A program made the translations under genes and the position numbers. A stretch of DNA of 64,000 nt, from NCBI GenBank assembly GCA_016839585.1, contig JAEOTZ010000042.1:3859-67858 (forward strand), given 5' to 3'. The notes beneath the pieces were generated by a model. The model saw only the letters and a program-made list of their open reading frames with translations, did not search any database and was not told where the DNA came from. This document shows, in pieces, positions 22,069 through 64,000 of the stretch. This DNA comes from Promethearchaeota archaeon (lineage in GTDB: Archaea > Asgardarchaeota > Lokiarchaeia > Sigyniarchaeales > SOKP01). How positions within the stretch are numbered: position 1 is the first letter of the stretch; each line of letters begins with the position of its first letter.

Positions 22069-22186
22069 AATTCTTACCTTGGGATGAATTAAATTCCTTT
22101 TTTTAGGATTTCAATATCATTTTTTGTATCAATAATATTTTATTAAAATAATAAGTGAAAAAATAAATTCTAAAATTAAATTTCAA

Positions 22187-22744: not shown

Positions 22745-22799
22745 TTAAACACCATTATAAATTTGAAATTTTTAAATAATACTATAAAAAATTATAATT

Positions 22800-23609: not shown

Positions 23610-23612
23610 TAC

Positions 23613-24941: not shown

Positions 24942-24943
24942 TA

Positions 24944-25339
24944 TTATGCCACCTTTAACGTTTTTATTAAATCAAGAGCATCTAAAACATTACCATTTTT
25001 AACTACTTCTACTTTTGCTTTCATCCCTTTATAAGTCGGTGTACCACAGGATTGAGTATCGGGATTTACAACTTGGTTAGCCCAAGGTCCCAGAGGTATA
25101 AATATTATACCCTTATGGGGACCTTCTTCAGAAATAGTAGAGTAAACCATTACTTCTCCATAATCAGTAATAACTTTAACAGGAGTTCCTACAAGGCAGT
25201 CTAACTTCTTGAAATCTTCTTTATCAAATGTACATATGGCAGCAGCTCTCACATTTTCTTTTGTTGTTTTACCACCTTCGAGTGCAACTCCCTGATTAAT
25301 TGTTCTTCCAGTCAGTAAAATCAAGTTGTTTAAACTCAT
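24944..25339 (-). CDS. fwdD: Formylmethanofuran dehydrogenase subunit D (molybdopterin dinucleotide-binding domain)
   Basis: About 131 aa from MSLNNLILLTGRTINQG. The start at 25339 forms an ATGA overlap with the upstream stop. The longer track ORF (to 25402) overlaps the polyferredoxin gene. Confidence 0.8.
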   Translation of the reverse strand: MSLNNLILLTGRTINQGVALEGGKTTKENVRAAAICTFDKEDFKKLDCLVGTPVKVITDYGEVMVYSTISEEGPHKGIIFIPLGPWANQVVNPDTQSCGTPTYKGMKAKVEVVKNGNVLDALDLIKTLKVA

Positions 25340-26085
25340 TCTTCTTTCTCCTCTTTTTCTCTCTCTCTTAAAGTCTTTAATCTTTCTAATAAAGGTTCCC
25401 AAAACATTTCACTAAATTTTCCAGATGTTTTAACATCTGTAATTTCTAACTTGACTGCACCTGTTGGACATCCATTATCACAAGCTCCACAAAATACGCA
25501 TTTTTCCTCATCCACAACTACATTTGGGACTGTTTCCCAGCCTTTATCAGACTTTTTTGGGACTGTAATTGCACCAGATGGACATACTTCGTAGCATGTT
25601 TGACATCCACCAGGGCACTCCTCATCAACAATACTTATTTTGCCGTCGGTATATTGTTTAACAACCCTCTTAATCGCGTTATAGTTCTCAATCTTTTTAG
25701 CTTCAAATTCCAGTCTGGGTACTACTTTTTCTTTTACAATTTGGATGTCTTCTAACTCAATTACTTCACCATCTTTTTTTAAAGTTAGAGCACTAAAAGG
25801 GCACATGTACACACAAGTTCCACAAAAAACACATTTTTTTGGGTCATATACCTCTGGTATAATATCTTCTAAAGTTGGGAATCGTCGGGAAGTTCCTACA
25901 GGTCCTCTTGAAATTGCCTCTTTAGGACAAACACGAGCACAAGTTCCGCAACCAACACATTTAGTTCTATCTAAAATTAATTCTAAACTTTCAGTTAAAA
26001 ATTGAACTTTTACATGTTCTATTTCTTTACTAATTGTTCTTGATATTTTTGGAAATGACATATTTTTTACCTCATTTACTTTCAA
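25336..26085 (-). CDS. fwdF: Polyferredoxin (FwdF-like, about four [4Fe-4S] motifs)
   Basis: 249 aa with four CxxCxxCxxxCP-type motifs, located within the fwd operon. Confidence 0.7.
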   Translation of the reverse strand: MKVNEVKNMSFPKISRTISKEIEHVKVQFLTESLELILDRTKCVGCGTCARVCPKEAISRGPVGTSRRFPTLEDIIPEVYDPKKCVFCGTCVYMCPFSALTLKKDGEVIELEDIQIVKEKVVPRLEFEAKKIENYNAIKRVVKQYTDGKISIVDEECPGGCQTCYEVCPSGAITVPKKSDKGWETVPNVVVDEEKCVFCGACDNGCPTGAVKLEITDVKTSGKFSEMFWEPLLERLKTLREREKEEKEE

Positions 26086-44727: not shown

Positions 44728-45972
44728 ATGCCGAAAGGACAAATTGAAAAAATTGAATTAATAAGTAAGTTCTTAGATAAAGCCAAAGTGATAAACTTTG
44801 ATAAATTAAATACAGTTGATGATATAATCAAATTACCAATTTCAACTTTTAATTTCTTGAGTGATGCTGATGTAGAATTAATTTATGATTTATTCGAAAT
44901 TAGTAGTATAGGACAATTTTCATCTTTGGATTATTTACAACCATTCAAAATTTTATATAAAGACAAAAAAACTAAAAGAAAAATTGAGCATATATTACAA
45001 ACAGATTTAGAAATCGAAGATAAGGTAAAAAAAGCAGTTGCTATAAGCAAAATTATATACCAAATAAAAGAAGAATCAATCTCCTTTTTAACAAAAGAGC
45101 AAAAAGTTATTGTTGTTGGTTTAAGTAATGCGGGAAAAACAACAATATTGAAAAAATTTGGTGGACAAATTGGTATAAAAGATCTAGCTAAATTAAGTCC
45201 AACAAAAGGAGTGGAACGTCATGAAATAATAACTTCAGATTTAGTTTTAATAGTTTGGGATTTTGGTGGTCAGCAAGAATACAGAAAAATGTATCTTCAT
45301 GAACCTGATAAATATTTTTTAAAAGTTGATTTAATAATGTATGTCATAGACCTTCAAGATCCAGAAAAATATGAAGAAAGTATAAAATATTTTAAAGAAT
45401 TAATTGATATTATCGAAAAACTTGAAGAAAATCCTTACATCTTAATTTTTATACATAAATTTGATCCCGATATAAAAGATAATCCGGAAATATTGCTTAA
45501 TATTGAAGTTGTAAAGGATTTAATTAAAAATGTTTTCAGGGATAAAAAGAAATATGATTATGACATATATTTAAGTTCTATATATTCAATATTAGCAAAA
45601 GAACCAAAATTTTCAAGATATCTTAAAGATACTATGGTAAAAACTGCAACATTAACAGATCATAAATTAGAAGGAATGGCATCAATTTTAGAGTCATCCT
45701 TAAATGGAATTATTAGATTATCAGAAACAGTAATGACACAATTTAATGAAATTGATAATCGAATAAGAATACTAGAAGGTGAAGAGCCAATCTCAAATAG
45801 GGCACCTTCTTCAATACCCTCTCCAGAATATTCTTCCATACCTCCATTTGCTTCACATTCAAGTACCAATATTGGAAAAAAAGTCATACCTAATAGAATT
45901 AAAAATGTAAGAGTTGCTGTTCTTGATGAACTAAAAGAATTACTTGAAAAAAGAAATAAAAAATTACTATAA
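44728..45972 (+). CDS. Arf/Sar-like small GTPase domain protein with N- and C-terminal extensions
   Basis: 414 aa. G1 is GLSNAGKT (residues ~131-138), G3 is WDFGGQ (the Arf-family WDxGGQ form), and G4 is the variant HKFD. It carries a ~125-aa N-terminal and a ~120-aa C-terminal extension. Confidence 0.75.
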   Translation: MPKGQIEKIELISKFLDKAKVINFDKLNTVDDIIKLPISTFNFLSDADVELIYDLFEISSIGQFSSLDYLQPFKILYKDKKTKRKIEHILQTDLEIEDKVKKAVAISKIIYQIKEESISFLTKEQKVIVVGLSNAGKTTILKKFGGQIGIKDLAKLSPTKGVERHEIITSDLVLIVWDFGGQQEYRKMYLHEPDKYFLKVDLIMYVIDLQDPEKYEESIKYFKELIDIIEKLEENPYILIFIHKFDPDIKDNPEILLNIEVVKDLIKNVFRDKKKYDYDIYLSSIYSILAKEPKFSRYLKDTMVKTATLTDHKLEGMASILESSLNGIIRLSETVMTQFNEIDNRIRILEGEEPISNRAPSSIPSPEYSSIPPFASHSSTNIGKKVIPNRIKNVRVAVLDELKELLEKRNKKLL

Positions 45973-51210: not shown

Positions 51211-51651
51211 TCAATCACTTTTCTTTTTGAACTTCTTAATTGCTCTTCTTAAAGTTCTTACTGCTAATGTTGCACAATGCTTATGATCTTCTGGTAAGCC
51301 ACCCAAAGAAACATCGATATCTTCAGCTGTTAATTTTTCTGTAAATTCTAATGATTTTCCTTCAACAAGTATCGTAGTATGGCTAGCGGTTGCTACAGAA
51401 GCGCCACAGCCGTCTGTGATAAACCAAGCATTCTTTATAGTTTTATCTTTAATATTTAAAAAGAATGTCATTGTATCTCCACAAGGACCAGTATATGATT
51501 CTGTAATAGATACTTTATTATCAGGGGGTTTTCCCCAATTTTTGGGTTTATGAAATAAATCAACGATATATTCGTTATATTCTTCTATTTCCTTTTGTTT
51601 GATTTCTTCTTGAAGCTTTTTTACGAACTTCTCAAAATTGTCATCAACCAT
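51211..51651 (-). CDS. iscU: IscU/NifU N-terminal-like Fe-S cluster scaffold protein
   Basis: 146 aa with three conserved Cys contexts: GPCGD, TDGCGAS and HCATLA. Confidence 0.75.
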   Translation of the reverse strand: MVDDNFEKFVKKLQEEIKQKEIEEYNEYIVDLFHKPKNWGKPPDNKVSITESYTGPCGDTMTFFLNIKDKTIKNAWFITDGCGASVATASHTTILVEGKSLEFTEKLTAEDIDVSLGGLPEDHKHCATLAVRTLRRAIKKFKKKSD

Positions 51652-51828: not shown

Positions 51829-53034
51829 GTGAATAACATTTCAGGGGATAAAATAAAAAATATAATTGCTATGGCAAATTATTGTTATAGTTGTAATCGA
51901 TGTGTTAATGTATGTCCACTTTCCCACATAGATGTTTTCTATCCCCAAAAATTGGTAGTAGATTTACTTTTTTCACCATTAAAAGAGGTTTTAGAAAATC
52001 ATAATATATGGGATTGTCTTACGTGTGGTCAATGCACCAATTACTGTCCAATGACTCAAGAAAGAGTTGGTGTGAGATTCCCAGAATTAATATTAGAATT
52101 GAGAAAACTAGCTTTTAATGACATAACTCAATTAGATAAAATCATTCAGTGTGAAACACATGATGAAATATTTCCACTCATTTCAAAAATTATGTCGGAT
52201 GATAACTTACATCCCAATAAATTGGAATTTTTGGAAAAGACCTCTTTAAAGACGATAAATTCAGGTGAAATTGCATATTTTGTTGGATGTTTACCTCTTA
52301 TGGAAACTATTTTTTATAAATCAGATATCAAATATATAAATACACCAAAGACTATAATAGGTCTACTTAATGAAGCAAATATCGTGCCGGTTGTATTGAA
52401 TGAAAAATGCTGTGGACATGATACTTTATGGAGAGGGGATATTAATACCTTTAAAAAGCTCGCCGAATATAATGTTAAACTTTATAGAGATGCTGGGGTT
52501 AAAACAATTATCTTAGGATGTGCTGAAGGATATAGGACTTGGAAGTTTGATTATCCAAAGATTATAAAAGATTATGACTTTAAGATTATACATTTCTCTG
52601 AGTTTTTTCTCAAAGAAAAAATCCTTGATAATGTTAGATTTCCACAAGAAACAAAGATAAAAGTTACATATCACGATGCATGCCGATTAGGACGCTTAGG
52701 AGGAAAATTATATGATGCTCCACGGGAATTACTTAAACAAATTCCTGGAGTTGAACTAATTGAAATGGAAAATATTAGAGATGATGCAAATTGCTGTGGG
52801 GTCTCAGCTTTTATGGGATGTAATGAATCAACTCGTATTTTTAGACAGAACCGCATTAATGAAGCATTGGAAACAGGGGCTGAATATTTACTTGTGCCTT
52901 GTCCAAAGTGTTTAACACATTTCGATTGTTATCTTAATGAACCATCCTTAGAAGATGATAATAAAAATTTAATAAATAAAATTAAAGTTGTAGATTTAGC
53001 AAGCTTTATTGGAGAATTACTTTTCCTTGTTTAG
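51829..53034 (+). CDS. hdrD: HdrD-like protein (2x[4Fe-4S] plus two CCG domains; HdrC-HdrB fusion type)
   Basis: 401 aa. It has CYSCNRCVNVCP and CLTCGQCTNYCP, then CCGHD and NCCGVSAF CCG motifs. The start is uncertain (GTG at 51829 or ATG at 51871). Confidence 0.75.
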   Translation: MNNISGDKIKNIIAMANYCYSCNRCVNVCPLSHIDVFYPQKLVVDLLFSPLKEVLENHNIWDCLTCGQCTNYCPMTQERVGVRFPELILELRKLAFNDITQLDKIIQCETHDEIFPLISKIMSDDNLHPNKLEFLEKTSLKTINSGEIAYFVGCLPLMETIFYKSDIKYINTPKTIIGLLNEANIVPVVLNEKCCGHDTLWRGDINTFKKLAEYNVKLYRDAGVKTIILGCAEGYRTWKFDYPKIIKDYDFKIIHFSEFFLKEKILDNVRFPQETKIKVTYHDACRLGRLGGKLYDAPRELLKQIPGVELIEMENIRDDANCCGVSAFMGCNESTRIFRQNRINEALETGAEYLLVPCPKCLTHFDCYLNEPSLEDDNKNLINKIKVVDLASFIGELLFLV

Positions 53035-53122
53035 AAACGACAAAGTGTATAAAAAATGATATATAACTTTTTTTTAAAAAACCGTATGAACTTAAGGAAT
53101 TTTCAATAATAGAGGGATATAA

Positions 53123-56100
53123 TTGAGCGAAAAAAATAAAGTGGGGTCTGTAATGATTGTTGGAGCAGGGATAGGGGGATGCCAAGCGGCATTAGACTTA
53201 GCAGATTCTGGTATCAAGGTCTATCTTGTTGACAAGGAACCTTCCATCGGAGGAGTTATGGCCCAATTAGATAAAACATTCCCAACAAATGACTGTTCGA
53301 TGTGCATTTTAGCTCCAAAACTCGTAGCTGTAGATAGACATCCTAATATTGAATTGATTACCTATGCAGATGTCCTAAATCTGGAGGGTGAAGCGGGTAA
53401 TTTTAATGCAACGATTAATAAAAAAACAAGATATATTCATGAAGATAAATGTACGGGTTGTGGGGATTGCGTTCAGGAATGCCCTGTTCAAGTTCCTGAT
53501 GAATTCAATCAGAAATTGAATAATAGAAAGGCAATATATCTTCAATTTCCCCAAGCTGTTCCTTTTAAAGTATTAATTGATAAGCAAGGGATTCCTCCTT
53601 GTAAGGATGCGTGTCCTGCTCACGTAAATGCCCAAGGATATATTGCTTTAATTTCTAAAAAAAGTTATCAAGAAGCCTTGAATCTAATTAGAGAAAGATG
53701 TCCCCTACCCTCTGTTATAGGTCGCATTTGTCCTCGATTCTGTGAAATGGTGTGTAATAGAGCTGAATTAGATACTCCTATTAATATCTGCGGTTTAAAA
53801 AGATTTGTAGCTGATTATGTAAGGGATAATCTTGAGGAAGAGATCATATTCTTAGAAGATCAAAAGGAAGAAAAGGTTGCCATTGTTGGCTCAGGTCCAG
53901 CTGGACTTACTGTTGCATATCATCTTGCAAGACGTGGATATTCCGTAACTATTTTTGAAAAAGAAGCTTTTGCTGGTGGAATGCTAAGACTAGGGATTCC
54001 AGATTACAGGTTACCCCCAGATATTTTAGAAAGTGATATTGAACATATTAAGAAATTTGGGGTTGAGATAAAAACTAATACACCAATAGGTTCTGATTTA
54101 ACTTTTGAAGATTTGAAAAAACAGGGTTTTAAAGCTATATTTATAGCTATAGGTCTTCATAATAGTCGTAAAATGGATTTTGAATGTAAAGATATTGAAG
54201 ATGTAATATATGGTGTTGAGTTTCTAAAAGAATTAAATTTATCCAGAAATGTACCTAATCTTAAAGATAAAATTGTAGGAGTAGTGGGCGGAGGAGATGT
54301 TGCAATGGATGCAGCACGATCATCAATAAGATTAGGCGCTAAAAAAGTCATAATTATCTATAGACGATCTGAACAAGAAATGCCCGCTTCAAGGGAAGAA
54401 ATAGAAAGAGCAAGAGAAGAGGGTATTGAATTCAAATTTTTAACAGTTCCTACCAGAGATGCCAGTGGTAAGGGGGGTAAACTTTCTGAAATTGAATGTG
54501 TTGAAATGAAACTTGGTGAACCGGATGAATCTGGAAGGCGAAGACCTATTTCAATTGAAGGTTCTGAATTCAAAATGAAGATAGATACTTTAATCCTTTC
54601 TATAGGACAAGAACCAGATTGCTCTCTAATAGAATCTGCTTCTAAAAAGAAATTAAATATTAATAAATGGGGTTACATTGAATCAGATAAAATATCTTTT
54701 GAAACTAATATCCCTGGCGTGTTTGCTGGTGGAGAGATCGTTGAGGGCGCTGGTTCTGCTATAGAAGCGATAGCAACAGGAAATAAAGCTGCTATAGTGA
54801 TAGAGAAATATCTAAAAGGAGAAGATATTTCCGAATTAAAAGAAACCATTCCAGATTATAAAGTAACGGATATAATTACTAGTGCTGGTATTCAAGATAT
54901 TGAGAGTTTTTCATGTCAAGATAGGAATGAGTTCACAATATGTCTACCAGAGGAACGTATATACAATTTTAATGAAGTCGCTAATGGTATGGATGAAGAA
55001 TCTTCTATTGAAGAAGCATTACGTTGTCTCAATTGCGGATCTTGCTGTGAGTGCTTTGAATGCGTGAGAGCATGTCAAGCTGACGCTGTTGATCATAGCT
55101 TAACTGATGAGACTATTTCTATCAATATTGGGGCTGTGATATTAGCTCTTGGCTCTGATGAATATAGACCAAAAATAGGGAATGTTTATGGATATGGTGA
55201 ATATCCAAATGTTATAACAAGTATAGAATTAGAACGTATACTCAATGCATCTGGTCCATTTAATGGAGAAGTCATTCGTCTTTCAGATAACACACATCCT
55301 AAAAAAATAGCATTTCTGCAATGTATTGGTTCTCGAGATAAAAAAATAGGTCATGAATATTGTTCTTCAATGTGTTGTATGTATACTACAAAAGAGGCTG
55401 TTATAGCTAAAGAGCATTTGAGTACTCTTGAACCCACTATTTTTAGCATGGATATAAGAGCATACGGAAAAGATTTTGACAAATATATTGAACGAGCTAA
55501 AGAAGATTATGGTGTAAGATATATTAGAAGTAGAATAGCTGCTATTAAAGAAATACCGGAATCTAATGATTTAAAAATTAGGTATGAGACTGAAGAAGGA
55601 AAAATTATCGAAGAAATTTTTAACATGGTTGTTCTGTCCGTAGGATTACAACCTAATCCAAATACTGCAGCATTTGCAAAAAAATTAAATATTGAATTAA
55701 ATGAATATGGTTTTTGTAAGACTACCAATTTTAATCCAATTGAGACTTCGCGACCAGGAATATATGTATGCGGAACATTTAAAGAGCCTAAGGATATTCC
55801 AGAAACCGTTATTGAAGCTAGTGCGGCTGCTGGAGCTGTTAATGTTCTATTATCTGATGTTAGAAATACATTAATTGCTGAAAAGAAAGATTATGAAGAA
55901 ATTGACATCAGTGGAGAGCCACCTCGAATTGGAGTCTTTATTTGCCATTGTGGAATTAATATTGGAGGTGTTGTTGATGTTCCTGAAGTAGTTGAATACG
56001 CAAGCAAATTACCAGATGTAGTTTATTCTGAAAGAAATTTATATACTTGCTCAGCTGATACACAAACGATTATTAAAGAAAAAATAAAAGAAAATCATTT

Positions 56101-58069
56101 AAATAGAGTAATCGTTGCTTCTTGTACGCCTAGAACACATGAACCATTATTCCAAGCAACTATTAGAGAAGCAGGTTTAAACAAATATCTTTTTGATTTA
56201 GCAAATATTAGGGATCAATGCTCCTGGGTACATAAGCATGAACCAGAGGAAGCTACAATGAAAGCTAAAGATTTAGTTAGAATGTCTGTTGCTAAAGCTA
56301 GAAATTTAGTTCCTTTAAAAGAACAAAAAGTAGAAGTAATTCATAAAGGAATAGTTATTGGAGGTGGCGTAGCAGGAATGACTGCTGCTTTAAATTTAGC
56401 AGATCAAGGGTATGATATATATCTAATAGAAAAAAATGATAAATTGGGGGGTATCGCAAATTCTATTTATCAAACTTTGGAAAACAATGATGTTCAAAAA
56501 TTAATTGGAAATTTAATAGAAAAAGTAAACAATCATAAATTAATTACCGTTTTTCTCGAAGCTAATATTAATTCTGTAAGTGGATATATAGGAAATTTTA
56601 CCACAGATATAACCTATGGTAAAAAAAAAGAAGAGAAGAAATTTGATCATGGGATTATTATTGTAGCTACAGGAGCAAAAGAATATATACCTAAGGATGA
56701 TGAATTTCTATTTAATCAAGATAAAAGAATTACAACCCAGTCAAACCTAGAAGAAATTCTTTTTACAAACGAAAAAAAGATAAGAGAATTGAAATCAATT
56801 GTAATGATCCAATGTATTGGATCTAGAAACGAAGAACATCCTTATTGCAGCAGGATGTGCTGCGCAGAAGCTATAAAAAATGCGTTAAAAGCAAAAGAGA
56901 TTAACCCAGATATCAATATTATAATTTTATTTCGTGATATTAGGACTTATGGCTTTAAGGAAAAATACTATAATTTAGCCAGAGAAAAAGGAATAATTTT
57001 CATCAGGTTTGATGAAAAAAAGCCACCCGAAGTTGTTAAAGAGGATAATCAATTACAAGTCTTACTAAATAAGCCAGATGTAGGAGAACTTAAAATTAAT
57101 TCTGATTTAATAGTATTAAGTGCAGGAATTGTACCTCCTGAAGGAAATTCAGAGTTAGCTAAAATACTAAAAGTCCCTCTTAATGAGGACAATTTCTTTT
57201 TAGAAGCTCATGTTAAATTGAGACCATCTGATTTTGCAACAGATGGAATCTTTTTATGTGGAACTGCACGAGGAGCGGCCAATATAAGCGAAAGTATAGC
57301 TCAAGCGAATTCTGCCGCTGCTAGAGCAATGACAATATTATCAAAAGAGATTTTGGAAACAGAAGGCATAACTTCCTATGTTAATGAAGATAAATGCATA
57401 GGTTGTGGTCGATGTGCTGAAGTTTGTCCTTATAATGCTATTGAATTGGTTGAGACTACAAAACAAATGGGTTTATATAGTAATGACATAAAAAAAGCTC
57501 AAGTAATTAAAGCTGTTTGTAAAGGCTGTGGAACATGCTTCGCAGAATGTCCTACCTCTGCAATTTCGATGAGTCATTTTGGAAATGCGCAGATTAAGCC
57601 AATGATTGAGGAAGCTGTGAAATCTGATGAGATCGGTTGGGAACCACGAATAATTGCGTTTCTCTGTAATTGGTGTTCTTATGCTGGCGCTGATTTAGCT
57701 GGTGTAAGTCGATATCAGTATCCTCCAAATGTAAGGGTTATAAGAGTAATGTGCTCGGGAGGTATGTCTAAAAGTTTCATTTTACAAGCATTTTTAGAGG
57801 GTGCAGACGGAATATTTATAGCAGGGTGTCATCTAGGGGATTGCCATTACATTAGTGGAAATGAAAATGCCTATCTCCGCTTGGAAAATCTTAAAGAATT
57901 ATTAAAAATGATTGGAATTGAAGAAGAAAGAATTCAAATTAATCAGATTTCCGCGAGTGAGGGAAAACAATTCTCAGAACTTATAACTGAATTTACAGAT
58001 AAGATCAAAGCATTAGGAGAATCGAAGATGCCTAAGAAAATAAGTAAAGCGAAAATTGAATCTAGCTAG
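53123..58069 (+). CDS. Giant multidomain flavo-Fe-S protein: HdrA core with an inserted GltD/NfnB-like NAD(P)H module, a second HdrA module, and a C-terminal MvhD domain (HdrL-like)
   Basis: 1648 aa with a TTG start preceded by AGAGGGA. Residues 1-156 are an HdrA FAD domain (GAGIGGC..DKTFPTNDCSMC). Residues ~157-566 are GltD-like (CPLPSVIGRICPRFCE; IVGSGPAGL; GGGDVAMDAA). The rest of the HdrA core runs from ~630 to 910. Residues ~930-1500 are a second HdrA with its N-terminal Cys domain (ICHCGINIGG). Residues 1505-1648 are MvhD (FLCNWCSYAGADLAG..GCHLGDCHY). Confidence 0.8.
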   Translation: MSEKNKVGSVMIVGAGIGGCQAALDLADSGIKVYLVDKEPSIGGVMAQLDKTFPTNDCSMCILAPKLVAVDRHPNIELITYADVLNLEGEAGNFNATINKKTRYIHEDKCTGCGDCVQECPVQVPDEFNQKLNNRKAIYLQFPQAVPFKVLIDKQGIPPCKDACPAHVNAQGYIALISKKSYQEALNLIRERCPLPSVIGRICPRFCEMVCNRAELDTPINICGLKRFVADYVRDNLEEEIIFLEDQKEEKVAIVGSGPAGLTVAYHLARRGYSVTIFEKEAFAGGMLRLGIPDYRLPPDILESDIEHIKKFGVEIKTNTPIGSDLTFEDLKKQGFKAIFIAIGLHNSRKMDFECKDIEDVIYGVEFLKELNLSRNVPNLKDKIVGVVGGGDVAMDAARSSIRLGAKKVIIIYRRSEQEMPASREEIERAREEGIEFKFLTVPTRDASGKGGKLSEIECVEMKLGEPDESGRRRPISIEGSEFKMKIDTLILSIGQEPDCSLIESASKKKLNINKWGYIESDKISFETNIPGVFAGGEIVEGAGSAIEAIATGNKAAIVIEKYLKGEDISELKETIPDYKVTDIITSAGIQDIESFSCQDRNEFTICLPEERIYNFNEVANGMDEESSIEEALRCLNCGSCCECFECVRACQADAVDHSLTDETISINIGAVILALGSDEYRPKIGNVYGYGEYPNVITSIELERILNASGPFNGEVIRLSDNTHPKKIAFLQCIGSRDKKIGHEYCSSMCCMYTTKEAVIAKEHLSTLEPTIFSMDIRAYGKDFDKYIERAKEDYGVRYIRSRIAAIKEIPESNDLKIRYETEEGKIIEEIFNMVVLSVGLQPNPNTAAFAKKLNIELNEYGFCKTTNFNPIETSRPGIYVCGTFKEPKDIPETVIEASAAAGAVNVLLSDVRNTLIAEKKDYEEIDISGEPPRIGVFICHCGINIGGVVDVPEVVEYASKLPDVVYSERNLYTCSADTQTIIKEKIKENHLNRVIVASCTPRTHEPLFQATIREAGLNKYLFDLANIRDQCSWVHKHEPEEATMKAKDLVRMSVAKARNLVPLKEQKVEVIHKGIVIGGGVAGMTAALNLADQGYDIYLIEKNDKLGGIANSIYQTLENNDVQKLIGNLIEKVNNHKLITVFLEANINSVSGYIGNFTTDITYGKKKEEKKFDHGIIIVATGAKEYIPKDDEFLFNQDKRITTQSNLEEILFTNEKKIRELKSIVMIQCIGSRNEEHPYCSRMCCAEAIKNALKAKEINPDINIIILFRDIRTYGFKEKYYNLAREKGIIFIRFDEKKPPEVVKEDNQLQVLLNKPDVGELKINSDLIVLSAGIVPPEGNSELAKILKVPLNEDNFFLEAHVKLRPSDFATDGIFLCGTARGAANISESIAQANSAAARAMTILSKEILETEGITSYVNEDKCIGCGRCAEVCPYNAIELVETTKQMGLYSNDIKKAQVIKAVCKGCGTCFAECPTSAISMSHFGNAQIKPMIEEAVKSDEIGWEPRIIAFLCNWCSYAGADLAGVSRYQYPPNVRVIRVMCSGGMSKSFILQAFLEGADGIFIAGCHLGDCHYISGNENAYLRLENLKELLKMIGIEEERIQINQISASEGKQFSELITEFTDKIKALGESKMPKKISKAKIESS

Positions 58070-58091: not shown

Positions 58092-58931
58092 TTAATATTC
58101 ATTAGGTATTTTTTTAAGCTCTGCCAGAGAGAACACTGGGCCATCAATACAGACGAATTTATTACCGATATTACATCTTCCACATTTACCAACCCCGCAC
58201 TTCATTCTCATCTCTAATGAATTTAAAATTTGCTCATCCTTCCAACCTAGATTTACCAATTCAGCCACGGCAGTTCTAATCATTATGGGCGGCCCACAGA
58301 CTACTGCTATAGCGTTATCAGGAGATGGAGCAACCTTCTTAACTACTGCTGCAACAAACCCTACTTCGCGAGTCCATCCTTCCTCTTCGCGATCAATCGT
58401 TAGGACTACGTTAATATCATCTCTTTTTTCCCATTCTTCAAGGATATCTCGATATAATACTTCACCAGAATCACGGTTACCATAAATCACAGTAATATCT
58501 TTATAATTGTTTCTATATCTTTCATCTAAAAAGTATACGACTAGAGATCTTAAGGTTGAAAATGCAAATCCGCCCCCGATGATCACGATATTCTTGCCTT
58601 TCATTTCTTCAATTGGCCAGCCATTACCTAAAGGACCTCTTACCCCTACAGTATCTCCAATTTCAACATTGTGAAATCCTGTAGTTACTGTTCCCATCTT
58701 CTTGATCGTAAATTTAATAGACCCTTCTTCAGTTGGAGATGAGGCAATACCTATTGGGCATTCTCCTTTTCCAATTAGACTAATTTCTGCAAATTGTCCT
58801 GGATTGTAATCAAAACTTTTCAAATCTTCTTCTTTCTTAAATACTAATTCGAGAGTTTTTATATCGTTTACTTTATTTTCTGAAACAACAGTTTTAATTT
58901 TCGTAAGCATGGGAATATACGGATTAGGCAC
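58092..58931 (-). CDS. FAD/NAD(P)-binding oxidoreductase with C-terminal [2Fe-2S] (FlxA / HydG / AsrB / PyrK-like)
   Basis: 279 aa. It has an FNR-like fold (GQFAEISL; RGPLGNGW; IIGGGFAFS) and C-terminal CGVGKCGRCNIG....C. Confidence 0.75.
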   Translation of the reverse strand: MPNPYIPMLTKIKTVVSENKVNDIKTLELVFKKEEDLKSFDYNPGQFAEISLIGKGECPIGIASSPTEEGSIKFTIKKMGTVTTGFHNVEIGDTVGVRGPLGNGWPIEEMKGKNIVIIGGGFAFSTLRSLVVYFLDERYRNNYKDITVIYGNRDSGEVLYRDILEEWEKRDDINVVLTIDREEEGWTREVGFVAAVVKKVAPSPDNAIAVVCGPPIMIRTAVAELVNLGWKDEQILNSLEMRMKCGVGKCGRCNIGNKFVCIDGPVFSLAELKKIPNEY

Positions 58932-59982
58932 TTACTTTCTCCTCCCTTTTTGGTTCAATTTTCTTAATTTTTTCAATTATTGTTCTAAGGTCATTATTAA
59001 CGGGACATAATTGAACACATCGTCCACATCCAACACACCCTAACATGCCGTAATTCTCAGGATAATAACAAAATTTATGTAAAATTCTATTTCTAACCCT
59101 TTGTATACAACTATTACGTGGATTATGACCACTTGTATGTAACGTATAAAGGCAAGATTGGCACGTATCCCATATTCTAATTCTTCTTCCACGATTCTTG
59201 TTTGGAACATTTTCATCAATTACATCAAAACAGGTACATGTTGGACATAGGAATGAACATGTTCCACATCCTATACAAGTTTCACTTACTTCTTTCCATA
59301 TTGGATGATCAAAATTTGGATCTAAAATTTTGTCGATATCCTTTAAATCTAATTTTGTTGTAATTGATTCTTCTGCCTGTTTTTTTAATTCTTGAGCCTT
59401 TTCTATATCCATCTCTTTAGCATCAGCAAGCCACGAAAGCTTTTTAATTAAATCTTTACCTTTATCACTAATTCCCTCAACAAGATATTCATTTTGTAAG
59501 TCAACTAAAAATACATCCATATAATCCTTTTGAAATGGATTTCCTTCTACTGATGTACAGAAACAAGTACTTTTAGGAGTATTGCAACCAATTCCTATTA
59601 AAATTGTATTTTTCCTTCTATTTATAATAATTTCGTCTTTGAAATCTCCTTGAGAGAAAAAGTTTACTAACAAGACAAAACTATGAGCGTCACAGGGTCT
59701 TATCCCAAAAATTATATTTTGTTCATTTAAATTTTTAGGTTCTTCAAGCTCTATCTCATTATCATTAATTTTATATTCAAAAAGAATATCTTTCTCCGGA
59801 AATAGTATTTCTTTCGGTGGAACTTTAGAATTTAGATAGTCCAGCACTATTTCTTCGGGATTTGTTATTTTTCTAAAAACTATATTTCTCTTTTCTTTAA
59901 TTGGAGCAAAAAAATTATAATCTTTTGTTAAATCATTATATAACTTTATGATTTGATCTTTTTTTAGAATTTTGTATTCCAT
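58924..59982 (-). CDS. Fe-S subunit (FlxB / HydB / AsrA-like)
   Basis: 352 aa. It has GIRPCDAHS, CIGCGTCSFLCPTCTCFD and CVGCGRCVQLCP. It overlaps the downstream gene by 8 nt. Confidence 0.7.
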   Translation of the reverse strand: MEYKILKKDQIIKLYNDLTKDYNFFAPIKEKRNIVFRKITNPEEIVLDYLNSKVPPKEILFPEKDILFEYKINDNEIELEEPKNLNEQNIIFGIRPCDAHSFVLLVNFFSQGDFKDEIIINRRKNTILIGIGCNTPKSTCFCTSVEGNPFQKDYMDVFLVDLQNEYLVEGISDKGKDLIKKLSWLADAKEMDIEKAQELKKQAEESITTKLDLKDIDKILDPNFDHPIWKEVSETCIGCGTCSFLCPTCTCFDVIDENVPNKNRGRRIRIWDTCQSCLYTLHTSGHNPRNSCIQRVRNRILHKFCYYPENYGMLGCVGCGRCVQLCPVNNDLRTIIEKIKKIEPKREEKVSA

Positions 59983-59998
59983 TTTTCAAGTCCCCTTT

Positions 59999-61009
59999 TT
60001 AATCTTCCTCCATCATAAATTCTTCTTTATCCTCTATATCATAAGCCATCATAGGAGGCAAGCTTCTTGGATCAATACCGGTTGTAAAATTAAACCTTTC
60101 TTTTGCGATTTTTTCTAAAGATCTGTTTATTAAATTCAAATCAATTCCCATCGGGCACGCACTGCTGCAAGCTCCACAACCTACACATCGACCTGCCATA
60201 TGCATTGCGCGAACTAAATGAAATACAAAAATATCAGAATAACCCGTTGTTTTTCCAAACCAAACAGGTTGGTTTTGATCTACAAAACATAGATTACAAT
60301 AGCACATAGGACATGCTTCTCTGCAAGCATAACATCGAGTACAAGTCTCTAAAAGACTTTTTATATATTCCCATTTTTCTTCAGTAGTTTTTGAATCAAA
60401 TTCAGCAATATCAGAAAAATCATCTTCAATAACAGGATTTTCTAAACATTCACCAACACATATATCTTCTAAAAATGGAGGTGATTTAACTTGGCATACT
60501 TTACATAATTCATTCATATATTCATTAAAAGGAAATACTTTTTCGAAGTCCCTGCCTTTTACTATGATATTATCACCAGATACTGAGATATCAAAGATTT
60601 CTCTTTCTCCTATTTCATCTTCAATTTTCTTCCTATTTATAATTCCATTACAAGGAATTCCAATTATTTTTATGCTTTCAAGATCGAGTTGATGCTCTAC
60701 CGATAAATGAATTAAAGCCCTGCCGACACAACCTTTTGATACAATACCTACTTTCAATTTTTGACCTTCTTCATTCATAAGTGTTGGTATTCGAGGGACC
60801 AAATATTTGGCCAAATTTATATAACATAAATTATTCCAAATTAATTTATCTACATCCTCTGCTTTATCTATCACAATTGGTGATGAACTTAAAGGAACAG
60901 TACCTTCTGTGTATCCAATAATAACATCAACTTGTTTTTCTTCAAGTAGTTTTCCAGCTAAATCTCTTATTAATTGCTCAATTTCTTTATTTTCATTTTC
61001 AATTACCAT
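59999..61009 (-). CDS. Fe-S protein (FlxC / FrhB-FdhB-like)
   Basis: About 336 aa from the ATG at 61009 (MVIENENKE...). It has CTRCYACREACPMCYC and CVGCGACSSACP. It starts 5 nt after the mvhD-like stop. Confidence 0.6.
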   Translation of the reverse strand: MVIENENKEIEQLIRDLAGKLLEEKQVDVIIGYTEGTVPLSSSPIVIDKAEDVDKLIWNNLCYINLAKYLVPRIPTLMNEEGQKLKVGIVSKGCVGRALIHLSVEHQLDLESIKIIGIPCNGIINRKKIEDEIGEREIFDISVSGDNIIVKGRDFEKVFPFNEYMNELCKVCQVKSPPFLEDICVGECLENPVIEDDFSDIAEFDSKTTEEKWEYIKSLLETCTRCYACREACPMCYCNLCFVDQNQPVWFGKTTGYSDIFVFHLVRAMHMAGRCVGCGACSSACPMGIDLNLINRSLEKIAKERFNFTTGIDPRSLPPMMAYDIEDKEEFMMEED

Positions 61010-61014
61010 AAAAA

Positions 61015-61470
61015 TCACCACTCCGTTTCAAATTTTTTGTTTGGTCCAAGTTTCTTTACATTATTTGTTACTTTTTTAATTAAAGTCGCAAATCTATCAC
61101 CTTCTGATGCAGAAGACCACATGAAAGTAACTCTATCAGGATCTATCCCGAAAAGTTTTAATAAATCTTGTAAAATCGCAAAACGTCTTCTTGCAACTAA
61201 ATTTCCACTAATGTAATGGCAATCACCTGGATGACATCCCGAGACAACAACACCATCCCAGCCTCTTAATAAACTTTTAATTATGAAAAAAGGATTTACT
61301 CTTCCTGAACATGGAACCCTTACTATTCTAATATTTGAGGGATATTGGATTCTACTAACACCTGCTAAATCCGCTCCAGCATAAGAACACCAATTACAGA
61401 GAAATGCAATTATTTTTGGCTCCCATTCTTTTTTATCTTCTGATTGTGTTTTTACTTTACTCGTTAAAGT
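61015..61470 (-). CDS. mvhD: MvhD/FlxD homologue ([2Fe-2S] electron-transfer subunit); start undefined, with no ATG/GTG/TTG ahead of the conserved domain
   Basis: Hand translation of the minus strand gives TLTSKVKTQSEDKKEWEPKIIAFLCNWCSYAGADLAGVSRIQYPSNIRIVRVPCSGRVNPFFIIKSLLRGWDGVVVSGCHPGDCHYISGNLVARRRF...ETEW*. The frame is bounded upstream by TGA (61473..61471). The ORF track does not list it. Confidence 0.75.
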   Translation of the reverse strand, partial: TLTSKVKTQSEDKKEWEPKIIAFLCNWCSYAGADLAGVSRIQYPSNIRIVRVPCSGRVNPFFIIKSLLRGWDGVVVSGCHPGDCHYISGNLVARRRFAILQDLLKLFGIDPDRVTFMWSSASEGDRFATLIKKVTNNVKKLGPNKKFETEW

Positions 61471-63464
61471 TCACCCCCCATTATTATTGAAAATATCTGT
61501 TCGCCAGTAAAGCCAATGATATCTATTGCTGAACATCTACAATTACCAGAACAAGCACCACACCCTTTACATAGAGCTTCATTTATTTTAGCTACTGTAC
61601 CAAACCATTTATCCTCAACAAGCTCAATAGCCCCATAAGCACAATTTTCAACGCACATACCACAACCAATACAACGTTCAGGGCGAACGACAGCAAAAAA
61701 TGGTTCTATCTCAACTTCACCCTGAGACATTAACACAGCTGCGCTTGAAGCGGCTCCTTTAGCCTGAGCAACAGCATCAGGAATATCTTTTGGACCTTGC
61801 GCAACACCAGCTATAAAGATACCCTCTGTTAAAGTGTCTACTGGTCGCAATTTTGGATGGGCTTCTAAAAAAAATCCATCTGCTGATCTTTGTATTCTTA
61901 ATAGAGAAGTTATTATATCTGCATCTGCTCGAGGCTCTAAACCACAAGATAAAACAAACAAATTTACTGTTAATTCAATTGGTTGTTGAAGTAAAGTATC
62001 TTCAGCTCTTATGATAATATTGTGATCATCATCTTCGATTACCTCTGCTATTCTTCCTCTCATAAAATTGATTCCGTAATTTTGCCCTGCAGATTCGTAA
62101 AATTCTTCATAACCTTTTCCAAAAGCTCGAATATCCATATAAAAAATATAAATATCTGCATCTGGATGCTTTTCCTTATATTGCCTTGCTTGCTTGGTTG
62201 CATACATACAGCAAACTCTTGAACAATATTGATTTCCTCCTTCTCTGAAATTTCTACTTCCCACACATTGAAGAAAGGCAATGCTATGGGGTTCTTTAAG
62301 ATCCGAAGGTCTAACAGGCTTTCCTATAACTGGTCCAAAAGAACTTAATAAACGCTCCATTTGAAGTCCAGTAATAACATTAGGGTATCTCCCATAGCCA
62401 TATTGTTTGAGTTCAGTAGGATCATATAAATCCCATCCTGTAGCAACGATTATTGTGCCTACCTTAATTTTCAAATATTCTGGTTTATCATCAAAATTAA
62501 TCGCTTCAGGTTCACATACATCTATTCTTGCACATATTCCGCATTTAATACAATTGTCCATATCAATCGTATATTGTCCAGGTATAGCTTGAGGGAATGG
62601 AATGTAAATTGCTTTTCTTGTGGCTAATCCGAGTTCAAATTCGTTTCCAACGACAACAGGACAATAATCAACACATACTCCGCAACCAGTACATTTCTCT
62701 TGATCTACGTAATGTGGTTTTTTTAAAATAGTAACTTCGAAATTTCCTATAAAACCAGAGACTTCTACTACTTCGGAATAGGTTAAAAGTTCAATATTTT
62801 TCTCACGTGAAATCTCAGACATTTTGGGGGTAAGTATACAACTCGAACAATCCATAGTTGGGAACGTTTTATCAAGTTGAGCCATATGACCACCTATTGT
62901 AGGCGTTTTTTCAATTAAATATACTTTATAACCCTCTGTAGCCAGGTCCAATGCAGCATTCATTCCTGCAACTCCTCCTCCTATTATTAAACAAGAGGGT
63001 TCTACTTTCACTTTCTGGACTTCTAGTGGTTTTAACTCCCTTGCTTTTGCTACAGCCATTCTAATATGGTCTTTAGCGATTTCATATGCTCCTTCTGGAT
63101 CTCTCATATGAACCCATGTTGAGTGTTCTCTAATATTTGCCATTTCAAATAAAAATTGGTTCAAACCAGCTTCTTTACAAGTGATTCTAAAAGTAGGTTC
63201 ATGCATCCTTGGAGAACATGCAGCAACAACAACTCTATTTACCAATCCCGCTTCAATATCTTCCTTTATAATCTTCTGCCCTACATCAGAACAAAAGAAT
63301 TTATATTCTTGTGCTACTTCTACGTTTGGAAGTGTTTTTGTATATTCTACCAAATCTGGAACTGAAACAACACCACCAATGTTGACACCGCAATGACATA
63401 TATAAACTCCAATTTTAGGTCTTTCATTACCAGTAACTTTTATTTCTTTTTTAGCTTCTGTCAT
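61464..63464 (-). CDS. hdrA: Heterodisulfide reductase subunit A (FAD, multiple Fe-S), Cys form
   Basis: 666 aa. It has an N-terminal Cys domain (ICHCGVNIGG), GGGVAGMNAA, DKTFPTMDCSSC, inserted and C-terminal ferredoxin motifs, and overall HdrA collinearity. Confidence 0.9.
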   Translation of the reverse strand: MTEAKKEIKVTGNERPKIGVYICHCGVNIGGVVSVPDLVEYTKTLPNVEVAQEYKFFCSDVGQKIIKEDIEAGLVNRVVVAACSPRMHEPTFRITCKEAGLNQFLFEMANIREHSTWVHMRDPEGAYEIAKDHIRMAVAKARELKPLEVQKVKVEPSCLIIGGGVAGMNAALDLATEGYKVYLIEKTPTIGGHMAQLDKTFPTMDCSSCILTPKMSEISREKNIELLTYSEVVEVSGFIGNFEVTILKKPHYVDQEKCTGCGVCVDYCPVVVGNEFELGLATRKAIYIPFPQAIPGQYTIDMDNCIKCGICARIDVCEPEAINFDDKPEYLKIKVGTIIVATGWDLYDPTELKQYGYGRYPNVITGLQMERLLSSFGPVIGKPVRPSDLKEPHSIAFLQCVGSRNFREGGNQYCSRVCCMYATKQARQYKEKHPDADIYIFYMDIRAFGKGYEEFYESAGQNYGINFMRGRIAEVIEDDDHNIIIRAEDTLLQQPIELTVNLFVLSCGLEPRADADIITSLLRIQRSADGFFLEAHPKLRPVDTLTEGIFIAGVAQGPKDIPDAVAQAKGAASSAAVLMSQGEVEIEPFFAVVRPERCIGCGMCVENCAYGAIELVEDKWFGTVAKINEALCKGCGACSGNCRCSAIDIIGFTGEQIFSIIMGGEL

Positions 63465-63474
63465 ATAATTCCTC

Positions 63475-64000
63475 CTAAATTAATTGTTCTTTAACTATAT
63501 TTAAGAACGGATCTATAGAAATAAAAGGAGAAACACCTTGTAACTCATGATTTTTAATTAATCCTAATAAATTAGGATCCATTCCGAAGGCTACTCCCAG
63601 GAGTTGAGTAATATATATTACAGGAATATGAAATGGTTCTCCAATTACATCTCCATAAAAATTATTTACCTCAACCTGCCCTAGGTCCAATTGAAGGTGG
63701 CAGAAAGGACAGCAGTTAATAATAATATCTACGCCTGCATCTCTCATATTCACTAATTTCTCCCGTGTAAAATCGGCTGCAACCTCTTTAACAGCAGTTC
63801 TAACAGCTCCACCAGCCCCACAACACATATATTTATCTTTGTAATCAATACTTTTTGCCCCTGTTATCTCAACAATTTCATCAAGAAATCTAGGAGCCTC
63901 ATATTCACCATTCCAAGGTCTTTTTTCACTTGGTTTTACAATATGGCAACCATAATGTACGGCTACCTTTAAATCTGAGAATTTAAGTTTGATAAAATCC
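63475..64000 (-). CDS. hdrB: HdrB-like CCG-domain protein; N-terminus lies outside the window
   Basis: The frame is open to the window edge. Translation: ..FIKLKFSDLKVAVHYGCHIVKPS...DKYMCCGAGGAVR...INCCPFCHLQL. This is the second CCG domain and C-terminus of HdrB. Confidence 0.75.
   Translation of the reverse strand, partial: DFIKLKFSDLKVAVHYGCHIVKPSEKRPWNGEYEAPRFLDEIVEITGAKSIDYKDKYMCCGAGGAVRTAVKEVAADFTREKLVNMRDAGVDIIINCCPFCHLQLDLGQVEVNNFYGDVIGEPFHIPVIYITQLLGVAFGMDPNLLGLIKNHELQGVSPFISIDPFLNIVKEQLI

Follow-up and report, generated by a model that had tools for sequence, protein, structure and literature searches.

An HdrL-type tandem HdrA protein with a StnC-like GltD insertion and a fused MvhD domain in a Promethearchaeota archaeon: conservation, architecture and proposed electron routes

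Results and Discussion

The Locus and the Integrity of the Reading Frame

Electron bifurcation based on HdrA is central to anaerobic energy conservation. Here, a stretch of 64,000 nucleotides (nt) from a Promethearchaeota archaeon (GenBank assembly GCA_016839585.1, contig JAEOTZ010000042.1, positions 3,859 to 67,858; referred to as the window, with all coordinates counted from its first letter) was analyzed with respect to one large gene, which encodes two HdrA units, a GltD/NfnB-like module and an MvhD domain in a single polypeptide, and to the HdrD-like gene preceding it. The identified features are listed in Table 1.

Table 1. Genes of the HdrL-type locus and modules of the 1,648-aa protein, with coordinates in the window (aa, amino acids; TrxR, thioredoxin reductase).
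Feature	Coordinates	Strand	Size, evidence and remarks
HdrD-like gene	51829-53034	+	401 aa from GTG (possibly ~387 aa from M15); Pfam CCG 1e-26, two stretches; Fer4 families
HdrL-MvhD mega-fusion gene	53123-58069	+	1,648 aa, TTG start; orthologues P0001-P0015
Unit 1 (HdrA'), first part, aa 1-155	53123-53587	+	Sequence matches to 9sfi_A and 5ODC HdrA
GltD/NfnB-like NADPH module, aa 156-640	53588-55042	+	NF009410 536 bits (cutoff 516); PDB alignments
Unit 1 continued, aa 641-915	55043-55867	+	Second inserted-ferredoxin motif and rest of TrxR fold; 5ODC mapping, conservation
Linker of ~15 aa, then unit 2 N-terminal domain, aa 931-1070	55868-56332	+	Alignment to 5ODC_A residues 2-130
Unit 2 TrxR/FAD domain, aa 1071-1412	56333-57358	+	5ODC mapping, family alignment
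Unit 2 C-terminal 2x[4Fe-4S] ferredoxin domain, aa 1413-1500	57359-57622	+	Pfam Fer4_7 and Fer4_21 at aa 1419-1483; 5ODC alignment
Fused MvhD domain, aa 1505-1640	57635-58069	+	Pfam FlpD (PF02662) at aa 1510-1632, E 6.7e-53, 178 bits; 5odc_D, 9sw2_D
FAD/NAD/[2Fe-2S] protein	58092-58931	-	279 aa; Pfam, NCBIfam
Fer4_22 Fe-S protein	58924-59982	-	352 aa; Pfam, NCBIfam
Fe-S protein	59999-61021	-	340 aa; Pfam, NCBIfam
Stand-alone MvhD	61015-61464	-	ACG in place of ATG
Canonical HdrA	61464-63464	-	666 aa; convergent operon
HdrB	from 63475, runs off the window	-	Convergent operon

According to the open reading frame (ORF) listing, the large gene consists of one uninterrupted frame of 1,648 codons starting with TTG, and no antisense ORF of at least 80 aa is present within it. 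The sequence GGAGGG is found 5′ of the TTG, which occurs at the same position in three relatives and is replaced by ATG in a fourth. A look-up by exact sequence gave no match for the window protein, in whose place the orthologues P0011, P0006, P0089, P0018 and P0017 were taken. A protein search yielded 15 clusters of orthologues with a length of 1,618 to 1,651 aa (1,637-1,651 aa for 13 of them), an identity of 68-96% and a coverage of 98-100%. The named clusters belong to Promethearchaeota, Hod-, Hermod- and Thorarchaeota, and wherever the source names the organism it is an Asgard metagenome-assembled genome (MAG). The nearest relatives (95% aa identity) were found by a species-level genome scan in two Promethearchaeota MAGs, which share their gene order with the window.

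Four orthologous genes were exactly 4,944 nt long, and the same frame recurs without indels in independent assemblies from several projects. The comparison of these four genes with the window gene by the Nei-Gojobori method resulted in dN/dS ratios of 0.10-0.14 overall and 0.04-0.23 for the seven individual modules, including the second TrxR unit and MvhD. For the family alignment, 37 sequences from Asgard archaea, Thermoplasmata, other archaea and bacteria were used. Every predicted cluster-ligating Cys was invariant in this alignment, bacterial relatives included. The predicted cofactor ligands account for 48 of the 55 Cys of the protein and are all present, as are the lysines K226, K757 and K1252.

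The preliminary description of this DNA, made from the letters and the ORF listing, had reported four modules in one frame (53123-58069), on which the Pfam, NCBIfam and PDB searches now agree. It had named two observations that would speak against the fusion, namely stops or frameshifts between the modules and a loss of cofactor residues pointing to decay. Neither was made, since orthologues of equal length and without indels come from independent assemblies and all cofactor residues are kept at a dN/dS of ~0.1 in each module. The possibility that the ORF is chimeric or misassembled, or a pseudogene in decay, found no support, the ACG start of the neighbouring mvhD being the sole nearby oddity. 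It was rejected on the basis of orthologue lengths, conserved ligands and dN/dS, and its probability is negligible as far as sequence can show. That the gene is of the HdrL type, functional and conserved, and comes from a Promethearchaeota (Asgard) archaeon, is near certain.

Module Architecture of the 1,648-aa Protein

The modules were placed using Pfam, NCBIfam and PDB sequence searches together with a mapping onto the HdrA of 5ODC and the canonical HdrA encoded at 61464-63464. The limits obtained agree with those of the preliminary description within a few residues.

Unit 1 has no N-terminal Cys domain because its best PDB stretch (aa 9-155) matches residues 145-291 of HdrA. Its first part contains the GxGxxG motif for flavin adenine dinucleotide (FAD) at aa 14-19 (GAGIGG), the Cys pair C58/C61 (NDC58SMC61) and the first motif of the inserted ferredoxin domain (C110/113/116/120). 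The Cys pair, which is invariant in the 37 family members, corresponds to Cys194/197 of 5ODC and Cys202/205 of M. marburgensis. The second part of unit 1 comprises the motif C641xxC644xxC647xxxC651, the TrxR cluster (C734/747/751/752) and K757, the equivalent of Lys409 of 5ODC HdrA, which is hydrogen-bonded to the flavin N5 (PMC6405883). A C-terminal ferredoxin domain is not present in unit 1.

Unit 2 begins with the domain of the 'shuttle' cluster, which carries the motif ICHCG and the ligands C941/943/976/1001, invariant in the family. In its TrxR domain the GxGxxG motif (GGGVAG), the cluster C1231/1242/1246/1247 and K1252 were identified. The TrxR-cluster Cys of both units (Cys386/399/403/404 of 5ODC) are invariant in the 37 sequences. 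The MvhD domain, already located at the C-terminus (57635-58066) in the preliminary description, was recovered as FlpD with an E value of 7e-53. Its [2Fe-2S] Cys set is present; the residues are C1515/1518/1544/1569/1574, H1570 and D1573, of which C1518, H1570 and D1573 align with Cys16, His68 and Asp71 of the M. marburgensis MvhD.

Two Complementary HdrA Units

The part following the GltD module had been described as a second HdrA unit. The N-terminal ICHCG domain is indeed there, but the unit is not a full HdrA, since it lacks both the inserted ferredoxin domain and the Cys194/197 pair: NNDVQK is found at the position of the pair and only ~12 residues at the position of the inserted domain. 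Each of the 37 aligned family members carries the Cys pair in unit 1 and not in unit 2, and the overall presence/absence pattern is identical throughout. Among the four accessory elements of HdrA, unit 1 holds only the Cys pair and the inserted domain. The full set of four was therefore not found in either unit and occurs once per polypeptide.

These patterns indicate that the two HdrA units are complementary halves, which together would keep one complete bifurcation circuit; this is new for the protein described here. As the sequence shows, unit 1 has retained the FAD site together with the Cys58/61 pair, the cluster of the TrxR domain and those of the inserted ferredoxin domain, and unit 2 supplies a 'mobile arm' consisting of the N-domain cluster, the C-terminal ferredoxin domain and MvhD. 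The polypeptide is an asymmetric counterpart of the HdrA2 dimer made of one chain. For the tandem and fused HdrA proteins of anaerobic methanotrophic (ANME) archaea, in which the order of the units is reversed, Chadwick et al. described this rule of complementarity (PMC9012536).

The GltD/NfnB-Like Module

The GltD module (Pfam Fer4_20 at aa 158-235 and Pyr_redox_2 at aa 251-553) is inserted between C110..C120 and C641..C651, i.e. between the two motifs of the inserted ferredoxin domain. It had been thought to stand where canonical HdrA has its inserted ferredoxin segment. The position inside this domain is correct, but the domain is not replaced, since both CxxCxxCxxxC motifs flank the module and are retained.

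The best PDB matches of the module were the inserted types 9n5u_A, 9bov_A and StnC (8oh5_C), followed by NfnB (4ylf_B, E 4e-99; 5jca_L, E 7e-96). The segment PEERIYNFNEV...EEALRC635LNC638G is similar to residues 13-43 of NfnB, i.e. to the NfnB N-terminus. Here, as it does in 8oh5_C, 9bov_A and 9n5u_A, it occupies the C-terminal end of the module. The GltD module is therefore circularly permuted in the manner of StnC. Both of its ends would contribute Cys to the distal cluster (C160/C164 and C635/C638), which suits a domain insertion. A first reading of the MAFFT alignment, in which C635/C638 formed part of the second ferredoxin motif, was rejected because the PDB alignments assign them to the permuted GltD N-segment and because C641/644/647/651 form a perfect CxxCxxCxxxC.

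The proximal cluster of the module has the ligands C203/207/211 and K226. The latter lies in the sequence LKRF, where NfnB (4ylf_B/5jca_L) has LERF, and corresponds to K170 of StnC. In the family alignment K226 is conserved in nearly all HdrL-type sequences, with one exception. StnC K170 is a ligand of the flavin-proximal cluster, and the StnC FAD was shown to be non-bifurcating (PMC10482914). The Rossmann fold for FAD spans aa 251-286 and the nucleotide site GGGDVA...YRRSEQEMPA aa 390-423. The combination of GxGxxA and YRRS is of the type that binds reduced nicotinamide adenine dinucleotide phosphate (NADPH), as in NADPH-binding NfnB and in StnC. The position of the N5 arginine is likewise conserved in the PDB alignment (IPDYRL). 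By analogy with StnC, the module is most likely a non-bifurcating NADPH port. What is new here is that a StnC-like GltD module is spliced into the ferredoxin-exit (low-potential) domain and not into the MvhD entry.

In two relatives (P0015 and P0016), (V/I)MLES(D/E)DIIPAH is found in place of YRRSxxEMPA (aa ~405-420 in the numbering of the window protein). This change may mean that some HdrL-type enzymes have switched to NADH.

No NfnA partner of the GltD module was found in cis. The neighbouring 279-aa protein has the Pfam architecture of NfnA and scores best with HydG/AsrB (219 and 204 bits), compared with only 84 bits with NF004862 (cutoff 220). It is probably not an NfnA, given its greater closeness to HydG/AsrB and the HydB/AsrA-like gene that accompanies it in every case.

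The HdrD-Like Gene

The HdrD-like gene ends 88 nt before the TTG of the large gene on the same strand, as previously noted, and its HdrC-like part with eight Cys and its two CCG domains were found with Pfam. The two [4Fe-4S] motifs of the HdrC-like part (C19/22/25/29 and C63/66/69/73) align with HdrC of 5ODC (5odc_C). The second CCG domain is complete (C285, C322, C323, C358, C361). An HdrD-like gene was located upstream of the large gene in the window and in all seven Asgard loci examined. Divergent from it, a gene for a NifU_N/IscU-like Fe-S scaffold protein lies at 51211-51651 (-), which is not conserved at this place in two of the Asgard loci (L001, L003).

Comparison With Known HdrA Systems

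HdrL was defined in D. autotrophicum as a fusion of HdrA and glutamate synthase followed by MvhD (PMC2702500). The gene in the window shows the features of this class: an HdrA of more than 1,400 aa with a GltD-type domain, encoded alongside MvhD and a CCG protein. The suggested link to HdrL of sulfate reducers was borne out by proteins of ~1,480 aa from Thermodesulfobacteriota and Syntrophaceae, which are colinear over ~90% of the length with 52-56% identity; these are unnamed MAG proteins and not the named HRM2 HdrL1-3 or Sfum_0824. The module order of bacterial HdrL (D. autotrophicum HdrL1-3, Syntrophobacter fumaroxidans Sfum_0824 and MAG proteins of 1,476-1,490 aa) is identical up to MvhD, and the conserved Cys, K226 and the asymmetry of the Cys pair are the same. 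As in the window, bacterial HdrL is always found beside MvhD and CCG proteins, which agrees with earlier descriptions (PMC2702500, PMC5947623). In contrast to the fused MvhD of the Asgard protein, the bacterial MvhD is encoded by a separate downstream gene, and the bacterial partner consists of HdrB and HdrC instead of a fused HdrD-like protein. The bacterial operon, which begins with gcvH in the Syntrophaceae locus described below, continues into a Flx-like trio of genes, whereas in the window the trio follows a canonical hdrCBA-mvhD on the opposite strand.

The statement that no characterised archaeal version was known holds with respect to characterisation, but archaeal versions have been described (PMC9012536, PMC12054007, PMC11237513). 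HdrA9-11 of ANME-1 have an NfnB-like insertion of 500 aa (PMC9012536). In a survey from 2025, proteins of ANME-1 and Bathyarchaeota with inserted GltD were termed 'type III HdrA'; the insert was predicted to block the ferredoxin site, and NADH was proposed as mid-potential donor (PMC12054007). Fusions of the type HdrA-HdrA-MvhD were reported in 2024 for Loki- and Thorarchaeota ('cluster 77'; PMC11237513).

Like the window protein, the type III HdrA and HdrA9-11 proteins are archaeal HdrAs whose inserted ferredoxin domain is interrupted by a GltD/NfnB-like segment of ~500 aa, which is predicted to obstruct the ferredoxin site and to connect Hdr with NAD(P)H. They mostly have a single HdrA, the class A9-TRX-C being named for an extra C-terminal TRX (thioredoxin-reductase) part, whereas the window protein is a tandem. 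Furthermore, their nucleotide motif was read as GxGxxG, implying NADH, in contrast to GxGxxA with YRRS here, implying NADPH, and their hosts are methane- or alkane-metabolising archaea with coenzyme M (CoM) and coenzyme B (CoB), whereas the host here belongs to the Asgard archaea. Within the annotated parts of the window, neither mcr nor CoM/CoB genes were identified.

The tandem types (ANME HdrA3/4, type II HdrA, 'cluster 77' and the P0017-type) show the same complementary loss of the N-domain and the Cys197 pair but contain no GltD insert, and in ANME HdrA3/4 the order is reversed, with the unit bearing the N-domain first. The closest scaffold is the P0017-type (~1,160 aa, no insert), with 62-86% identity in the HdrA and MvhD parts and an HdrD-like gene nearby. 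The HdrA-MvhD fusion HdrA2 of Methanosarcina is colinear with the C-terminal unit and MvhD of the window protein, and all HdrA and MvhD cofactor sites of the methanogen HdrABC-MvhAGD complex (5ODC) were found, spread over the two units. Unlike HdrA2 and methanogen HdrA, the window protein has no single complete unit and no CoM/CoB context.

For the inserted module, the GltD fold, FAD, the NADPH site and two [4Fe-4S] clusters are common to StnC (8OH5) and NfnB (4YLF, 5JCA). The permuted topology, the insertion into an Fe-S domain of the host protein and the proximal-cluster Lys are shared with StnC, in which the host is a NuoG-like domain instead of HdrA. NfnB differs by its linear topology, its Glu ligand, its NfnA partner and its ability to bifurcate by itself.

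In terms of the published HdrA typology, the window protein unites three types: type II by its tandem units, type III by its GltD insert and type Ia by its MvhD fusion. In a limited literature search, no published description of an Asgard HdrA with a GltD insert was found; such proteins are already contained in public databases as 'FAD-dependent oxidoreductase'. The model NF040770 (CoB-CoM heterodisulfide reductase HdrA2) scores 1,209 bits against a cutoff of 1,100, which is reached only as the sum of four stretches from two partial units (53123-58066). Since the cutoff is exceeded, automatic (PGAP-type) annotation could mislabel the protein as 'CoB-CoM heterodisulfide reductase HdrA2'.

The Convergent Operon and Candidate Partners

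Immediately downstream of the large gene, the trio 58092-61021 on the opposite strand encodes a Flx/HydBG-like NAD(P)H:Fe-S module. On domain composition only, it is the convergent operon (58092-64000, -), with the trio, MvhD, HdrA and HdrB, and not the large gene that has the composition FlxABCD-HdrABC, reportedly described for Flx-Hdr by Ramos et al. in 2015. Two NAD(P)H-linked Hdr systems, the large gene and the convergent operon, thus lie tail to tail at a distance of 22 nt.

The arrangement was observed in the window and in the six Asgard loci that reach far enough: the HdrD-like gene and the HdrL-MvhD gene converge on hdrC-hdrB-hdrA-mvhD followed by genes for an Fe-S protein (~340 aa), an Fe-S protein with Fer4_22 (352 aa) and the FAD/NAD/[2Fe-2S] protein (279 aa). 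In a Syntrophaceae MAG (locus L004) the order is gcvH-hdrC-hdrB-hdrL-mvhD-FeS-FeS-FAD/NAD. The identity between the window trio (279/352/340 aa) and the three genes after hdrL-mvhD of this locus is 56/39/40%. In Thermoplasmata, hdrCBA-hdrL-mvhD-FeS was found, followed by more HdrA genes. A similar HdrABC/HdrL cluster is known from S. fumaroxidans, where it is abundant in cells grown with sulfate (PMC5947623).

The stand-alone mvhD (61015-61470, -) is intact and begins with ACG at 61462-61464, and no ATG, GTG or TTG precedes its conserved core. Its relatives in three other loci (L003, L007, L008) have an ATG overlapping the hdrA stop codon (TAATG). The ACG could be a near-cognate start, a recent loss of the start codon or a base-call error.

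The HdrD-like gene and the large gene had been proposed to encode a self-contained enzyme. This part of the preliminary description is not supported: MvhD is a docking and relay domain, and no partner for it is encoded by these two genes. The habitual presence of an additional module downstream of MvhD in HdrL systems also argues against a self-contained two-gene enzyme, which is therefore doubtful. The best candidates for a partner of the fused MvhD are the neighbouring Flx-like NAD(P)H module and a hydrogenase of the MvhAG type.

With regard to the thiol substrate, an MvhD-fused HdrL of a Euryarchaeota MAG (L005) lies amid genes for GcvH, two lipoate-protein ligases, a GGR-like flavoprotein and a radical-SAM protein. 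We take this neighbourhood to resemble the sHdr/LbpA lipoate kit. The coordinates of the flanking genes are 5108-5530 in L004 (GcvH-like) and 1272-1706, 4580-5593 and 12317-15486 in L005. A lipoylated carrier protein is accordingly a candidate for the thiol/disulfide substrate of HdrL systems, as the gene contexts suggest. The idea is not transferable to the genome described here, as no homologue of GcvH or of lipoate ligase (LplA) was found anywhere in the window by tblastn.

Proposed Electron Routes

In the cryo-electron microscopy (cryo-EM) model of Mvh-Hdr-Fmd (2026, PMC13580544), the [2Fe-2S] cluster of MvhD comes close to the Cys202'/205' pair and to FAD', both in one HdrA. From FAD', the high-potential electron travels over HA4' to HdrCB, and HA5' and HA6' lie on the low-potential path. 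The approached pair, FAD', HA4' and HA5'/HA6' belong to one protomer, whereas the shuttle cluster HA3 and MvhD are on the N-/C-domain arm of the other. The assignment of HA3 to the N-domain cluster was inferred by combining PMC9012536 and PMC13580544. As all primed elements are located in unit 1 and the whole arm in unit 2, the fusion would keep exactly one complete circuit. By analogy with these complexes, one of two bifurcation circuits would thus survive, with three ports.

At the mid-potential port, electrons would pass from the [2Fe-2S] centre of MvhD via the Cys pair to the FAD of unit 1, and an external partner would have to dock at MvhD. The high-potential port would lead from the FAD of unit 1 via the TrxR cluster to the two [4Fe-4S] clusters and the CCG clusters of the HdrD-like protein, where a disulfide/dithiol would be the substrate. 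At the low-potential port, the FAD semiquinone would donate its electron to the N-domain cluster of unit 2, from which it would reach NADP(H) through the inserted-ferredoxin clusters, the two GltD clusters and the GltD FAD. The GltD module would thereby prolong the HA5/HA6 branch, i.e. the canonical low-potential (ferredoxin) exit, and MvhD would stay the canonical entry. The net reaction, which would be reversible, reads: reduced partner + NADP+ + RS-SR → oxidised partner + NADPH + 2 RSH. With a probability of roughly 0.55, we favour such a three-port bifurcating or confurcating enzyme, with MvhD (external partner) at mid potential, the CCG site of the HdrD-like protein at high potential and NADP(H) at a non-bifurcating GltD module at low potential.

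Several points weigh against this assignment. To our knowledge, biochemical results exist for neither HdrL nor type III HdrA, and no HdrL or GltD-inserted HdrA has been purified. The roles of the ports are extrapolated from methanogen complexes. The flavin site of unit 2 (GxGxxG, four-Cys cluster and Lys) is intact and as constrained as that of unit 1, so that unit 2 may be more than a scaffold; the equal constraint on both flavin sites is unexplained by the view of one circuit. Whether the GltD flavin bifurcates is not decidable from sequence alone. The Flx-like trio of the Asgard loci belongs to a different, convergent operon with its own HdrABC and MvhD. The spacer of 88 nt between the HdrD-like gene and the large gene carries a run of eight T and a TATA-like stretch, and co-transcription is not established. 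As to the CCG-domain catalytic site of the preliminary description, two CCG domains are present and the second is complete, but the first contains C154, C194, C195 and C231 without the fifth Cys (GCAEGY). This last Cys is missing in eight of eight Asgard sequences (the window and seven orthologues), whereas the compared HdrB sequences have CxxC. The catalytic site may therefore differ from that of a true heterodisulfide reductase and is not the textbook HdrB site. Finally, PMC12054007 proposes that the GltD branch is used the other way round, NADH being the mid-potential donor.

This opposite direction also underlies the scheme of the preliminary description. NAD(P)H would be the mid-potential donor, its electrons passing through GltD and the re-purposed inserted-ferredoxin clusters to the HdrA flavin, where one branch of the bifurcation would lead to the CCG site (high potential) and the other, over the C-terminal ferredoxin domain and then MvhD, to an acceptor of low potential such as ferredoxin or, via MvhAG, H+. 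On this view the two genes would come close to being self-sufficient. All modules needed for it are intact, ferredoxin would be barred from the inserted ferredoxin domain by the GltD insert, and mvhADG is part of the type III HdrA cluster of Bathyarchaeota (PMC12054007). StnC, moreover, provides an example of a GltD module able to feed electrons from NADPH singly through clusters to a distant bifurcating flavin (PMC10482914). However, the canonical low-potential exit would have to serve as entry, and MvhD and the Cys pair as exit, contrary to the cryo-EM model. No free ferredoxin-binding domain would be left, and the second pyridine-nucleotide module following MvhD in bacterial HdrL operons would be redundant if GltD were the donor port. 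A module for NAD(P)H is indeed present, but the described 'entry site' is only one of two possible assignments, because GltD is wired to the inserted-ferredoxin clusters, the canonical low-potential exit, and MvhD is the canonical entry. Overall, NAD(P)H as mid-potential donor is the main alternative, albeit a tentative and somewhat unlikely one.

Another possibility is a non-bifurcating wire, with the HdrA flavins as mere relays in a simple oxidoreductase of the NADPH:disulfide (or NADPH:partner) type. Electron transfer from NADPH to a disulfide is exergonic and needs no coupling, and some HdrA homologues, e.g. sHdrA (6tjr, matched in the PDB search), are thought not to bifurcate. The bifurcation toolkit, consisting of the Lys409 equivalent, the Cys pair, the shuttle-cluster domain and the MvhD His and Asp, is nevertheless strictly conserved over Asgard archaea, Thermoplasmata and bacteria, and a simple reductase would not need ~1,650 residues and ~11 clusters, which makes this explanation quite improbable.

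Two bifurcating flavins in series, the GltD FAD acting like the b-FAD of NfnB in addition to the HdrA FAD, would result in a two-stage potential amplifier, an idea raised for HdrA9-11 of ANME-1 (PMC9012536). The strong similarity of the insert to bona fide NfnB (4ylf_B, 5jca_L) and the conserved N5 arginine position fit this idea, which is very unlikely given that no NfnA-like high-potential branch ([2Fe-2S]/a-FAD) exists in cis, that the proximal-cluster position is occupied by Lys as in the non-bifurcating StnC and not by the Glu of NfnB, and that the topology is of the permuted StnC type.

Within the favoured assignment, with MvhD at mid and NADP(H) at low potential, a more specific version can be formulated for the case that the Flx-like module docks on the fused MvhD. 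The protein would then be a third kind of electron-bifurcating transhydrogenase beside Nfn and Stn, with NADH (or H2 at low partial pressure) as mid-potential donor, NADP+ at GltD as low-potential acceptor, and a disulfide at the CCG site of the HdrD-like protein replacing ferredoxin in the driving couple. In relatives, the driving disulfide might be a lipoylated GcvH-like protein. This version is speculative and, as it stands, unlikely; if true, it would mean that the archaeal lineage nearest to the eukaryotes possesses a transhydrogenase in the form of a natural single-circuit, 'half-of-sites' HdrA.

Other Features of the Window

A second Hdr-related cluster was identified at 19704-26085 (-). 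It encodes an HdrB (295 aa, two CCG domains), a 143-aa ORF without Pfam hit, FdhD and formylmethanofuran-dehydrogenase-like proteins, namely a GXGXG/FwdC-like, a molybdopterin/FwdB-like and an FwdD-like protein and a polyferredoxin of 249 aa. Such a gene set fits an archaeal Wood-Ljungdahl pathway and a link that may exist between Hdr and Fwd.

At 37050-38537 (+), a 495-aa fusion of a DHDPS-family and a formaldehyde-activating enzyme (Fae) domain is encoded, which was found at the same relative position in the Asgard loci L001 and L003. The gene at 44728-45972 (+) encodes a 414-aa small GTPase of the Arf/RagA/Roc type, a eukaryote-signature protein that supports the Asgard origin of the DNA. 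No tRNA genes were found in the window.

Implications

The finding is incremental, since the class, the insertion and the tandem complementarity have all been published. Its value lies in a testable single-circuit model of Hdr-type bifurcation and in the correction of a likely mis-annotation, and not in a new class of systems. The name 'CoB-CoM heterodisulfide reductase HdrA2' is misleading for this protein and is better avoided. With one asymmetric circuit and an NADPH port in one chain, the protein would be a natural 'single-circuit' construct for the model of the mobile arm and the Cys pair of Hdr, and it would contribute to understanding how NADPH, thiols, and H2 or NADH are kept in balance by syntrophic Asgard archaea.

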